Virus record (IMG/VR): IMGVR_UViG_3300010043_000006
Span: 1 to 42,741 of that record
Direction: 5' to 3' (one strand)
Length of the DNA stretch: 42,741 nt
Origin: a virus
Lineage: Duplodnaviria; Caudoviricetes
The notes beneath the pieces were generated by a model. That model saw only the letters and a program-made list of their open reading frames with translations. It had not been told where the DNA came from and made no database searches. The position numbers and the translations under genes are program-made. Below, piece by piece: positions 6,680 through 22,483 of the stretch; position 1 is the first letter of the stretch; the number at the start of each line of letters is the position of its first letter.

Positions 6680-7732
6680 TTACACCACCCTTGCTTCCGT
6701 GTTGAGGATTGCGTCACAGGTCCTAACAGGGATACCCCGGAAGGTTGTGATCGGCTTACCGTCGAACTCTTCAATTCTGAGCAGGACGTTAGTCTTGTTC
6801 ATAGCTTGAAGGTCGAGGTAGGTGCGGACGACACGGTTGCAGTAGATGACCGTGCGGCCCATATTGGCGCGCACCTCAGGAGTGTCTGAGGTCTGGACGG
6901 TACCAGCGCTGACTGGCTGCGTCGGCATACGATACAAGGCTCGGACGAGGAAGTTGATCAGGTTGGCTGCCGAGACACCGGTGAGGATGGTGGTGTCGAT
7001 GTTGGCGATGCGGACAGCATAACGCCAATCTCTGAGCACCAAACCGATCTCCCACTTGAAGTGGTCACGGTAGGCCTGATAGGTGTTCCCGCCCGAGTCC
7101 TGTACCGGCCACTCGCCCATATCCCGGTGTTGGAGGCCGGTGATCTTGCCCTTCGGGAACGTCGCAAAGAGCGTGTCCGCACCCCAACACACGACCCAAA
7201 TCGATGTGTTGACTGAGGCCGTGCCACCAGCGTCAAGGATGTTAGCCGCCGTTTGTGAGTTGGCTGCCGTGACGGTGGAGTACCGAGGAGCGAGGCCAGT
7301 AAACCGCTCAGGGTTGGCAAACTGGTTGCCGTAGATAAGCGTCTGTGCGACTTGCTGGCTCATGCCTTCCAAGAACGCCTTGACTTCGCTGAGCCTGAAC
7401 TCGGCGGTGTTGCCGTTTAGGTCGGCGATGTCCTTGTCGATCACGGCGTAGGTTTCCAGATTGCCGCACGTGTCGACGATCTGTGCCGTGGTTGACTTGG
7501 CGTTCGGGACGCCGCTGTTGAGCAAGCGCCATGTACCGATCGGCAAGCCTGTCCGAACGGTGGTCTTGTGGCCGGTTGGGAGGTTGCCCTCCATCACCAG
7601 CATGTCTTCCAGTATTTCGTTCGTCTGACTGAGCAATTCGATGATGGTGGCTACACGGTAGCCGTCATCCATGCGTTTGGCCCAGTCACCGTAGGTAAGC
7701 GCAAGAGCGCTACCTGCTAACACTGTTGCCAT
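6680..7732 (-). CDS. Major capsid protein (BPP-1 Bbp17-like)
   Basis: IIELLSQTNEILED, GNLPTGHKTTVRTGLP, FTGLAPRY, LVLRDWRYAVRIANID, FRGIPVRTCDAILNTEARV. Confidence 0.95.
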   Translation of the reverse strand: MATVLAGSALALTYGDWAKRMDDGYRVATIIELLSQTNEILEDMLVMEGNLPTGHKTTVRTGLPIGTWRLLNSGVPNAKSTTAQIVDTCGNLETYAVIDKDIADLNGNTAEFRLSEVKAFLEGMSQQVAQTLIYGNQFANPERFTGLAPRYSTVTAANSQTAANILDAGGTASVNTSIWVVCWGADTLFATFPKGKITGLQHRDMGEWPVQDSGGNTYQAYRDHFKWEIGLVLRDWRYAVRIANIDTTILTGVSAANLINFLVRALYRMPTQPVSAGTVQTSDTPEVRANMGRTVIYCNRVVRTYLDLQAMNKTNVLLRIEEFDGKPITTFRGIPVRTCDAILNTEARVV

Positions 7733-16031: not shown

Positions 16032-16077
16032 AAAAAGAAAGGGCCGATACCTCAACGGGTATCGGCCCTTTTCGTTT
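16032..16077. terminator. Bidirectional intrinsic terminator
   Basis: AAAAAGAAA-GGGCCGATACC-TCAACG-GGTATCGGCCC-TTTTCGTTT, between convergent operons. Confidence 0.88.
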
Positions 16078-16169: not shown

Positions 16170-16595
16170 CTAGGTAGCGGCCACCTCACCAAATCGCACC
16201 AGCGACGCCCTAATCGGCTTTGGTAATCGGCTACCATCGGCTACCGGCGCCGTGTTACGCTTATTGCGCTGTATGCTGGTGTGTGCCGCCGATAGTTTAG
16301 AACGATCTCGCTGCGCCAACAATGCACGCTCTTTGCATATTGGACACAACGGCACCAACGATCTCCCCTTCATGCGCCGTTCAGATGCAAACTCACAGTT
16401 AAACCACACCCGAGCTAAATGCAGATTACATCCAGCTCGCCTAGCATACTGCGTAAGCACAGCACCACGACCTTCATGGTGTTCCTTAAACCGTTCAGCC
16501 ACATCACGGCCATTGCGACATATGCCAAGGTAATGACCAGCATGCTTATAGCGTGGTTCAATGTGGATGAGATAGATGGTGTAGCCGGTGCTCAT
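16170..16595 (-). CDS. GIY-YIG-like endonuclease with C-terminal CxxC
   Basis: IYLIH...HYLG...RFKEH..GRGA.LT...LARVW...ERRMK...LCPIC. Confidence 0.75.
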   Translation of the reverse strand: MSTGYTIYLIHIEPRYKHAGHYLGICRNGRDVAERFKEHHEGRGAVLTQYARRAGCNLHLARVWFNCEFASERRMKGRSLVPLCPICKERALLAQRDRSKLSAAHTSIQRNKRNTAPVADGSRLPKPIRASLVRFGEVAAT

Positions 16596-18063: not shown

Positions 18064-18263
18064 ACCCTCAGCTTATCCAACATATATCGGGTGTTAAGGT
18101 GTGCTTGAATGCGCCGTAGGCTCTGTGGCGCATTGAACGGATTGCTACTTGTGCCCATAGCAACCACGCACTTGGTGGTTATGTCCCACAGCTTCCATTC
18201 ATAATAGCCATCAATGTGCTTATTGCGGCTCATCTGGAATGGACAATCACGCTTCTTGCTCAT
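18057..18263 (-). CDS. Hypothetical protein
   Basis: 68 aa, GAGG SD. Confidence 0.6.
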   Translation of the reverse strand: MSKKRDCPFQMSRNKHIDGYYEWKLWDITTKCVVAMGTSSNPFNAPQSLRRIQAHLNTRYMLDKLRVC

Positions 18264-18438
18264 CTTTAACCTCGTAGAATGCTAGTGTGAAGTCGCAGAC
18301 CGGGAAAGCCTCAGCAGCTTGGACGAGGCTTTCAGCTTCAACTATTCCAACGAAGTCCTGTGTTTGCTTCTCGTATGTCTCTCCTTTGATTTTGACATAG
18401 ATGTTGGTGGGTTTATACCGATACACAGCCACTTGCAT
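18247..18438 (-). CDS. Hypothetical protein
   Basis: Probable start ATG 18438 (MQVAVYRY), GGAGGT SD. Confidence 0.65.
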   Translation of the reverse strand: MQVAVYRYKPTNIYVKIKGETYEKQTQDFVGIVEAESLVQAAEAFPVCDFTLAFYEVKDEQEA

Positions 18439-18440
18439 CG

Positions 18441-18524
18441 TTACCTCCAATGTATGAAACCAGCAGCTTCAAGGAATGCTACCAGCATGAGCATGTAGAA
18501 TGCCATCATCAGGAACACACGCAT
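18441..18524 (-). CDS. Small membrane peptide (27 aa)
   Basis: Translated by hand: MRVFLMMAFYMLMLVAFLEAAGFIHWR; strong SD AAAGGAGG 5 nt upstream. Confidence 0.65.
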   Translation of the reverse strand: MRVFLMMAFYMLMLVAFLEAAGFIHWR

Positions 18525-18540
18525 TGCGGCCTCCTTTGAA

Positions 18541-18615
18541 GAGCCTCCCCTCAATGACGAGGGGCACCTGTTGCGTAGGTGTCAGCTACAGAACGCAACT
18601 CTGTACTGAAGGCTC
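18541..18615 (-). ncRNA. Candidate structured RNA: perfect four-way junction with complementary 7-nt loops
   Basis: Four stems with no unpaired junction bases (18541-46/18610-15; 18547-52/18559-64; 18565-69/18577-81; 18582-92/18600-09, one bulge); loops GTTGCGT and ACGCAAC are exact reverse complements. Strand inferred from flanking genes. Confidence 0.6.
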
Positions 18616-18623
18616 ATAAGGGA

Positions 18624-18654
18624 CAAAGAGAGGCGGTAGGTTTCCCTACCGCCT
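18624..18654 (-). terminator. Intrinsic terminator-like hairpin
   Basis: Minus strand AGGCGGTAGG-GAAA-CCTACCGCCT-CTCTTTG, just after the 18677 stop; weak U tract. Confidence 0.65.
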
Positions 18655-18676: not shown

Positions 18677-19288
18677 TTACCAACGGTATGGGTCTGTGCC
18701 TGTAGCTACCTTAGGCTCTTCAGCCACATGTGAATCATCACCAGCGGCAGTAGGCTCATGCACAGGTGGAGTGGGAAACGGTGTAGGTTCCCTAACCTCC
18801 TCTTTCGGCTCTTCACGATGGAACAGCTTCTTTGCCGCATCCATCCACTCGAATGCCTCATCGAGCTTGGCTTTCACCTTCTCAAGCTCTTCCTCCGCCG
18901 TCATGGCACGGAGTAGATGATCGTCACTCTCGCGCTGACTGGAATGGAGCTTATCGCTGAGATCCTTAATGCGAATATCATTGGCACTGATAGTGTCATT
19001 CGCATTAGCCAGATCACGATGCAGCACATCCTTCGTGCTACGCTCTGTATCAAGCTCACCCTGAAGCCTATCACGATGCTGCCGCACCGTATTCAGCTGC
19101 TCATTGAGCCATTGATTGGTAGCCTTAAGGCTCTCAACCTCTTCCTTGATACGCCGTTGCTCATGCTCAAGCTCTGCAACGCGCTTACCAAGCTCACTAG
19201 CTGAGACGATTGCATCGGCCGCTTTCGAGAACATATTGCGAATGCTTGTCATCTCAGCCTCCGTCGGGGCAGCAACTACATCAGTCAT
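18677..19288 (-). CDS. Coiled-coil protein
   Basis: About 130 aa of heptad-like sequence and an acidic/Pro tail; AGGAGG SD. Confidence 0.8.
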   Translation of the reverse strand: MTDVVAAPTEAEMTSIRNMFSKAADAIVSASELGKRVAELEHEQRRIKEEVESLKATNQWLNEQLNTVRQHRDRLQGELDTERSTKDVLHRDLANANDTISANDIRIKDLSDKLHSSQRESDDHLLRAMTAEEELEKVKAKLDEAFEWMDAAKKLFHREEPKEEVREPTPFPTPPVHEPTAAGDDSHVAEEPKVATGTDPYRW

Positions 19289-19649: not shown

Positions 19650-20270
19650 TTAGTGACGGGCAATCGGTTGACCCGGCCGCCCTCGTGTCTGCACCATAGC
19701 GGCTTGCTTGGCGCTCGTAGCAGCCTTTGCCTTTTGCTTCTTAGCCTCGGCAGCAGCCACCTTGGTGGGAGACGTCTTGATGATGCTCTTGACGTCGATC
19801 TTGACAGGCACCTTCGCCCTCTCTTCGAGGTTCTTCGTTGCCTGCTCGATGAGACTTGCATCAGCCTCAAGCAGCTGGTTAGCTGCCTTCGTAATCTCAC
19901 TGGCTTCCACATGGGAAACCTTGATGCCTTGGCGTTTCATCTCATCCTTGATGAGGTTCTTCGCCAAACGCCGAGCCTCGGTCATAACCACACCGGGCAC
20001 TTTGCCAGCCTTGGCAGAACGGCCACGCTTGGGCATCTTGCCAACCTTGAGATCCTCAAGGTTCTGCATTGCGATTTCCAAAGCCGCTTCCTTACGCTTC
20101 TCCTCATCTGGATAATTGGCTTTGGTAATCTTGCTCATCCCCTTGTTGAGATAAGCCTTAACGCCTTCAGCCAAACACCACTTGTAGAGTTCCTCATCGG
20201 ACAGATCCACATCGGTGTCCACTTGAAGGCTATCCTTCGCCTTCGTAATCTGGATGTCGAACACGGCCAC
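19650..20270 (-). CDS. Lys/Ala-rich protein, first gene of the leftward early operon (possible DNA-binding protein)
   Basis: 206 aa, GTG start with AGGAGG SD, histone-like AAAEAKKQKAKAA tail. Confidence 0.8.
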   Translation of the reverse strand: MAVFDIQITKAKDSLQVDTDVDLSDEELYKWCLAEGVKAYLNKGMSKITKANYPDEEKRKEAALEIAMQNLEDLKVGKMPKRGRSAKAGKVPGVVMTEARRLAKNLIKDEMKRQGIKVSHVEASEITKAANQLLEADASLIEQATKNLEERAKVPVKIDVKSIIKTSPTKVAAAEAKKQKAKAATSAKQAAMVQTRGRPGQPIARH

Positions 20271-20370: not shown

Positions 20371-20399
20371 ATGATACGCCATTGCGATGGCTTTGTCTA
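20371..20399 (-). promoter_or_regulatory. Sigma70-type leftward early promoter with palindromic spacer
   Basis: Minus strand TAGACA-17 bp-TATCAT; spacer contains the inverted repeat GCCAT-N4-ATGGC. Confidence 0.65.
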
Positions 20400-21850: not shown

Positions 21851-22483
21851 ATGAAGAAGCTACTATTGGCCACAGTGATGGCAATGACGCCAGTTGCTGC
21901 GATGGCCGACGTCACCATAATTGACAAACTAAGTGGTACTGGTGACAACGTGGTGTTTGACTCTCAAGTAGGTGGTCTCATCCTTGGGAGTTTCAACGGC
22001 CAAAATCAAGGGGTCGTTGACTTCACCGACCTGTCTGGAAACGCACTGTTTGTGGGTGCTCAGAATGGCAACGACATCAAGATTGCCAACACGAGCGACC
22101 TTCAGATACAGGTCTTTGACGCAACCAACACCTCGGTGTTGCCAACTGCCACTGACGTGTTCTCTCTGAAAGGCACCGGGACCGTGACAGCATTCGTCAC
22201 CGCCAACGAACCGGGCGGCGGCACCACGTTGTTCACGTTCAACCTCGGCATGATTGACCCGAACGCACAGTCCGGGTTCACGTTGTCGGCCATCAACGGC
22301 GAAACGATCAACATGTACACGCTGCTCGATGTTGGTGGTAACATTACCGACTTCGAGCACTATCGTGTCGACGTTGCCACTAGCGCTGTACCAGAGCCAA
22401 GCACGTGGGGCATGATGTTGCTGGGCTTTGTCGGACTAGCCTTTGCCTTCCGTAGTCGGCGGAAGGTAGTCGGCCTAGCCTAA
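21851..22483 (+). CDS. PEP-CTERM (PEPxxWA-type) sorting-domain secreted protein
   Basis: Signal MKKLLLATVMAMTPVAAMA; C-terminal AVPEPSTWGMMLLGFVGLAFAFRSRRK (PEP motif, TM helix, basic cluster). Confidence 0.92.
   Translation: MKKLLLATVMAMTPVAAMADVTIIDKLSGTGDNVVFDSQVGGLILGSFNGQNQGVVDFTDLSGNALFVGAQNGNDIKIANTSDLQIQVFDATNTSVLPTATDVFSLKGTGTVTAFVTANEPGGGTTLFTFNLGMIDPNAQSGFTLSAINGETINMYTLLDVGGNITDFEHYRVDVATSAVPEPSTWGMMLLGFVGLAFAFRSRRKVVGLA

Follow-up and report, generated by a model that had tools for sequence, protein, structure and literature searches.

A candidate lineage-restricted structured RNA with a perfect four-way junction ahead of small genes in uncultured tailed phages

Background

Ahead of a run of small genes in an uncultured tailed phage lies a stretch of 75 nt (18541..18615, minus strand) that was predicted from the letters alone to encode an undescribed structured RNA. 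The question raised by this locus is whether such an RNA exists, to which class it might belong, and whether it would act as part of the messenger that carries it or as a molecule of its own. The window, i.e., the whole stretch of DNA analysed here, comprises 42,741 bases and carries podovirus-type head, tail, polymerase and terminase genes. Since the best cultured match of the polymerase is a Caulobacter phage (35.9%), and since a PEP-CTERM protein is also encoded, an alphaproteobacterial host is plausible. The runs containing the region are soil metagenomes, and no RNA dataset is found among the runs listed as holding it.

With respect to gene order, the minus strand comprises a promoter, genes coding for 206, 79 and 203 aa, a hairpin, the element, about 11 small ORFs and a terminator-like hairpin. 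The promoter (20371..20399) is sigma-70-like by consensus match only (10 of 12 positions), and no other sigma-70-like site was found between the start of the operon and the element. The first gene (19650..20270) codes for a lysine/alanine-rich protein of 206 aa with 725 homologues; neither a PHROG nor an NCBIfam family was found for it, its Pfam match is sub-threshold only, cultured phages are unmatched, and an Atlas search led to one unnamed cluster at 0.80. A coiled-coil gene of 203 aa (18677..19288) precedes the element, and the terminator scan places a strong terminator-like hairpin (16038..16071) at the end of the small-gene run.

Two further observations concern the surroundings of this operon. 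The segment 20371-20539 contains two sigma-70-like promoters arranged back to back, which agree with the consensus at 10 and 11 of 12 positions, respectively, and head two divergent small-gene runs, and an ORF of 141 aa (16170-16595, minus strand) is conserved in the records L012, L013 and L014. The latter ORF is without match in Pfam, PHROG and NCBIfam, and judged by eye its N-terminus resembles that of a GIY-YIG nuclease.

A perfect four-way junction of 75 nt

The sequence, coordinates and strand of the element are as originally predicted, and a four-way junction without unpaired junction base is indeed its minimum-energy fold (-35.7 kcal/mol; z = -4.32, none of 200 shuffles being equally good). 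The fold comprises 27 stem pairs, all with a probability of at least 0.85 except for a slipping one-base bulge in P2. As judged from folding and covariation, the closing stem P1 pairs 18615-18610 with 18546-18541 and encloses the arms P2 (18582..18609; 10 bp plus the one-base bulge, with loop L2 at 18599-18593), P3 (18565..18581; 5 bp, with loop L3 at 18576-18570) and P4 (18547..18564; 6 bp and perhaps a further G-U pair). The element is located 15 nt 3′ of a conserved hairpin and 4 nt 5′ of a ribosome-binding site.

As had been claimed, L2 (GUUGCGU) and L3 (ACGCAAC) are exact complements. However, G-U pairs close L2 and L4 in the lowest-energy fold, and L2 reaches its 7 nt only when the terminal G-U pair is opened, at a cost of 0.5 kcal/mol. 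To gauge chance, a single strand of each of 57 related sequences (701,530 nt in all, duplicate records included) was folded locally. Of the 2,899 four-way junctions so predicted, 31 lack an unpaired junction base, and a 7-nt complementarity between loops was found in just two, namely the element and its near-identical copy.

Homologues and compensatory changes

Two further carriers, L001 and L002, were reached through a neighbouring protein, which brings the known variants of the element to three, two of them being 97% identical. All 27 stem pairs are preserved in both, and there are seven two-sided pair changes, two in P2 and four in P4, found in L002, and one in P3. An equally high covariation was obtained in one of 500 shuffles, and slid controls pair in 33-45% of cells. 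Between the window and L002, 13 out of 14 substitutions fall into stems and not a single pair is broken, a result matched by random placement in 2 of 200,000 trials; the stem changes in L002 are clustered in blocks and may represent 3-4 events only. The closing pair of P3 is U-A, U-G and C-G across the three variants, and because of the U-G intermediate the minus-strand orientation is favoured.

Invariant in the three variants are P1, the lower parts of P2 and P3, and L2. Likewise, 19 of the 21 unpaired positions are kept, and the UUCA spacer and the Shine-Dalgarno (SD) sequence are unchanged in all three carriers; in five flanking genes, by comparison, 122 of 208 four-fold degenerate positions are identical. 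The argument from conservation is weakened by the mosaic identity to the phage of L002, one nearby gene being 93.6% identical. In every carrier, P4 ends in a UCAY loop closed by a G-U pair. An intergenic hairpin in L027 (4502-4525) has a similar loop, and the 14 nt at its top match arm P4 of L002 exactly.

Outside these three phages no further variant came to light. Pattern searches of viral contigs, which returned 8 loci, 120 loci from 10 of 64 parts, 58 loci, 22 loci and 113 loci (all 113 folded, 100 of them model-scored), together with one more pattern, gave nothing beyond L001 and L002; the search with 58 loci recovered the hairpin of L014, a relative without the element. A pattern search of metagenomes (120 loci from 35 of 64 parts, all folded and 100 of the 120 model-scored) found no further variant and returned identical copies of L002 (L237) and of the window (L244). 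The variants of L001 and L002 appear again in the runs X2 and X3, which perhaps derive from the same samples and are thus not independent. A model (R1) built from the three close sequences gave nothing beyond L001 and L002 over 55 sources, and over whole records it matched in 2 of 49 and then in none of five more, with L061 covered as a locus only; resting on three close sequences, it may let distant homologues escape. By BLAST, no copy was found in 72,556 plasmids or 50,697 phage records, and in a small sample of 401 genomes there was again no copy, two matches of 25-27 nt being at chance level. L050 and L034 were rejected as relatives, having exact partial matches of 14 and 18 nt, respectively, but no similar fold.

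Comparison with known RNA classes

At the gathering threshold, a scan of the window with Rfam 15, which includes C4, freshwater-2, ribozymes, riboswitches and SRP, gave no match. At E-values of up to 10, four chance-level matches (12-18 bits against thresholds of 37-80 bits) were obtained, of which only the one to TLS-PK3 overlaps the element (14.8 versus 80 bits, E = 1.2). The element does not occur in the supplementary files 3-6 of a study of 8,495 IMG/VR alignments (PMC10690425), and an unnamed prior listing elsewhere in the alignments of that study is possible. Within those parts of the literature that a search returned, there was no description of the element or of any perfect four-helix junction whose neighbouring arms bear complementary loops. 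Given that Rfam is unmatched and that compensatory changes are found in P2, P3 and P4, the prediction of an undescribed structured RNA is supported, and comparison of the three variants points to a lineage-restricted candidate with a well-supported fold.

In size, cloverleaf topology and the possible 12-bp stack of P1 and P4 the element resembles a tRNA, and P3 even has the dimensions of an anticodon arm (5 bp and a 7-nt loop). It differs from tRNAs by a 10-bp arm at the position of the D arm and by the lack of junction nucleotides, and the view that it is no tRNA is borne out by the missing T-loop motif and by ARAGORN, which made no call. Instead of NCCA, P1 is followed by UUCA in all three carriers; CCA is left unencoded by many phage tRNA genes.

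The invariant core and the location between genes of a phage operon would also suit a self-cleaving ribozyme belonging to a new class and cutting the transcript of the operon, and the natural hairpin ribozyme likewise uses a perfect four-way junction. However, the ribozymes in Rfam are unmatched, known core motifs do not lie inside the element, in agreement with the original prediction, and a single bulged base is all that is unpaired outside the terminal loops, so that a ribozyme appears improbable. The hairpin ribozyme and the yybP-ykoY and NiCo riboswitches are four-helix junction RNAs that dock via internal loops or junction bases, whereas the element has neither and finds no Rfam match.

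The C4 RNAs of phages P1 and P7 and the CI RNA of phage P4 measure about 75-80 nt, have paired ends and reside in an operon ahead of small genes. The similar size, the closed ends and the position before small genes would thus be in keeping with a processed antisense RNA of this type, with loops pairing to the phage's own mRNA, as would a 7-mer complementary to L2 at position 22119 (plus strand) that is common to the three carriers. It is with the target sites that the analogy drawn in the original prediction fails. Loop-complementary runs of at least 8 nt are absent from the operon of the window and of L001, and a single match of 9 nt is found in L002 only. The shared 7-mer lies mid-gene in a 93.6%-identical segment, an 11-nt match being expected about once by chance, and no C4-family Rfam match was obtained. 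Unlike C4 and CI, the element has no conserved targets in the operon, mutually complementary loops and no unpaired junction base, and an antisense RNA of this kind is therefore considered highly unlikely. The PEP-CTERM gene as antisense target was rejected, the match being at chance level.

Two separate observations may be added here. The PEP-CTERM protein (about 21851-22483, plus strand) has a signal-peptide-like start, matches Pfam PF07589 with an E-value of 1.4e-8 and is just below the cut-off for NCBIfam PEPxxWA-CTERM; its gene is 93.6% identical in DNA in the phage of L002, far over neighbouring genes, and may be a gene for surface or exclusion functions that was exchanged recently. The P3 loop and the start of P4 of L002 are complementary (9 + 8 nt; 7574-7598 with 7695-7710) to the final part of the upstream gene, stop codon included. 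This pairing, found in L002 only, is equalled in strength by 13 of 1000 shuffles and lies 4.5 kcal/mol above the minimum fold; it may reflect either a template-switch mutation or an alternative pairing.

The element is accessory

The 27-codon hydrophobic ORF, the UUCA spacer in front of AAGGAGG and the upstream hairpin, all of which had been described, are present. The ORF (18441..18524) has a homologue in L002 with 12 of 27 residues identical. The proposed tie between the element and a membrane micropeptide does not hold, as in L002 a 70-codon ORF comes first and the homologue of the micropeptide second; this 70-codon ORF has three database matches, itself included. In the more distant L014, the upstream gene, the hairpin, a pyrimidine tract and the downstream genes are kept, the tract is joined straight to the SD, and the next small gene of the window (18247..18438) directly follows the hairpin. 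Hence the element is accessory, as L014 has this operon but not the element. What L014 lacks comprises either a 79-nt unit surrounding the element or the element along with an ORF or two. Contigs from run X1 contain the L014-type join with short flanks of 19-33 letters; this run holds a second, L014-like phage without the element beside the sequence of the window. The absence of the element from other related records, whose intergenic DNA cannot be aligned, suggests that it was gained in this lineage.

Presence/absence polymorphism and terminal inverted repeats are also what a small mobile DNA element or its remnant (IS200/IS605- or MITE-like) would exhibit, the structure then acting in single-stranded DNA, and the flanks TTAT and TTCAA are reminiscent of IS200/IS605 cleavage motifs. 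However, the empty allele differs from the exact join expected of excision at those motifs, the element is single-copy in the window and was not encountered in the plasmids, phage records and sampled genomes searched, and no transposase was found among 50 ORFs scanned. A mobile DNA origin thus seems most improbable.

Upstream hairpin and control of translation

The hairpin 5′ of the element (18631..18654) has 10 bp and a GNRA loop, covaries in four phages and is also found in L014 without the element; it is older than the element. It may be terminator-like or a nuclease-processing site. A terminator hairpin had been predicted at this position, and a hairpin is there, but efficient termination could not be confirmed, as no more than five of eight tail positions are T; the terminator scan of the window gave 11 sites against 7.9 +/- 2.8 in shuffles. 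In the lineage of the window, the lower stem of the hairpin is short. In L026, L029, L031, L036, L038, L048 and L053, a long interrupted hairpin, located about 1 kb downstream of a marker gene, extends into the SD of the next gene before small genes. These long interrupted hairpins resemble RNase III sites and, by analogy, represent a candidate RNase III-type motif for transcript processing in this group of phages.

The pyrimidine tract (18618..18634) is invariant in four phages and could pair with the SD (AAGGAGG, 18530..18536), which lies 4 nt after P1 behind the spacer UUCA, provided that the 5′ arm of the hairpin is absent. A translational switch had been among the options envisaged; in such a switch, a ligand or protein at the junction would decide on this pairing. 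P1 indeed sets the tract beside the SD, and in all three carriers an anti-SD helix of 10 bp, formed by the 3′ arm and tail of the hairpin with the SD, is predicted when the 5′ arm is absent. However, this helix is about 5 kcal/mol weaker than the hairpin state (-70.1 versus -75.1 kcal/mol), it excludes the hairpin and not the junction, and it exists equally in L014, which has no element. No loop is complementary to the SD, and exposure of the SD is inconsistent: its mean unpairing in the three carriers amounts to 0.23, 0.30 and 0.24 in read-through RNA and to 0.27, 0.18 and 0.50 with a 5′ end at P1. The switch thus lacks thermodynamic support and is regarded as distinctly unlikely. Two variations of the theme were dismissed, namely release of the SD through a cut at P1, which does not consistently free it, and an antiterminator strand located upstream, which neither L002 nor L014 conserves.

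Pairing between the loops

The claim of a 7-bp kissing pseudoknot stands in so far as the loops are exactly complementary, but among the three sequences none of the seven kissing pairs varies, and a full intramolecular helix looks sterically impossible in a crude model. In L002 one base of L3 is deleted, as it is in a Logan contig perhaps from the same sample. This deletion removes one of the pairs, leaves four contiguous ones and reduces the stability of the loop-loop duplex from -8.6 to -2.3 kcal/mol. The steric model consisted of rigid A-form beads with P2 and P3 joined directly; it is crude and poorly sampled, and its helix parameters were checked against expected phosphate distances. Out of 48 starts, the intramolecular kiss closed in 0 with 7 bp, 1 with 6 bp, 8 with 5 bp and 16 with 4 bp, compared to 7, 14, 31 and 35, respectively, for two free hairpins as control. 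This modelling points to a contact that is either partial and intramolecular or full and intermolecular, and not to the 7-bp pseudoknot as originally proposed. A nested L2:L3 helix as ground state was rejected (-30.8 versus -35.7 kcal/mol).

The element might, in turn, be an independent small RNA gene cut out at both ends, giving a trans-acting, tRNA-shaped decoy or protein ligand whose loops pair between molecules into dimers or rings. In line with this, it is tRNA-sized with paired ends, its core is invariant while the outer stems vary, it stays while the next gene changes, and it is gained and lost like small cargo ORFs. Moreover, the full 7-bp helix, as stable as the duplex above before the deletion, is feasible in the model only between free hairpins, and P2 stacked on P3 would point the loops apart. 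The cages of the phage RNAs ROOL and GOLLD are built by intermolecular kissing loops (bioRxiv 10.1101/2024.12.08.627333). Against it speak the loss of duplex stability in L002 and the lack of covariation of any loop pair, the missing CCA, and the invariant 4-nt gap to the SD, which suggests coupling to translation. Neither a consensus promoter directly upstream nor a terminator directly downstream of the element was found, and a separate RNA would therefore need processing. On balance, an independent RNA is a possibility that we rate as rather doubtful. Its more specific form, in which a released RNA of 75 nt with a tRNA-like P1/P4 axis and a kissing-loop P2/P3 rod assembles head-to-tail into small rings and either takes part in the early takeover of the host or acts as a decoy against defences directed at tRNAs, is unlikely.

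Intermolecular kissing loops with ring geometry occur in phi29 pRNA and in engineered RNAI/II nanorings. Like phi29 pRNA, ROOL and GOLLD, the element has mutually complementary loops within a single phage RNA, which might allow pairing from one copy to another. It differs in that it is far smaller than ROOL and GOLLD, has no sequence match to this group and does not lie beside packaging genes, its oligomerisation being putative.

A putative leader of the small-gene messenger

The reading that we prefer, if only tentatively and with somewhat less than even confidence, is that of a cis-acting, processed and nuclease-protected leader forming the front end of the mRNA for the small early genes. 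Host RNA polymerase would transcribe the element from the sigma-70-like promoter and pass the weak-tailed hairpin, upon which a host nuclease would cut either the hairpin, in the manner of RNase III, or the foot of P1, in the manner of RNase P, with P1 stacked on P4 providing a 12-bp acceptor-like helix for the latter cut. A contact of 4-5 bp between L2 and L3 would then lock the domain, so that attack from the 5′ end is resisted and the downstream message becomes longer-lived. Such a leader is supported by the preserved pairing, the invariant core, the fixed UUCA and SD and the processing-like hairpins in relatives, and a lock of 4-5 bp by the closure of the 4- and 5-bp kiss in the model and by the four pairs kept in L002.

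The early RNase III sites of phage T7 and the lambda N leader are likewise structured, located between host-transcribed early genes and near an SD. These are rods, whereas the element is a branched domain downstream of such a hairpin. As regards the cut at P1, it has been proposed that E. coli RNase P cleaves phage RNAs that have no T loop, C4 and CI among them (PMC5499578).

Several points argue against the leader. A plain 5′ hairpin would suffice for protection, and the invariant core and the exact loop complements exceed this need. Gain or loss with one or two small ORFs suits an independent cargo gene equally well, UUCA in place of NCCA after P1 and the short lower stem of the upstream hairpin fit the leader poorly, and the model predicts nothing about the sixth and seventh complementary loop pairs.

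Conclusions

The distribution of the element over three uncultured phages is narrow, which limits its general importance. As a small, putative natural RNA it can be synthesised directly, and the alleles with and without it, together with the loop-deletion variant, are natural controls. Should the element protect the ends of processed mRNA, it would represent a new type of nuclease barrier in bacteria and a part of use in expression constructs. If, on the other hand, its loops pair between molecules, the size of self-assembling phage RNAs would shrink from several hundred nucleotides to that of a tRNA.
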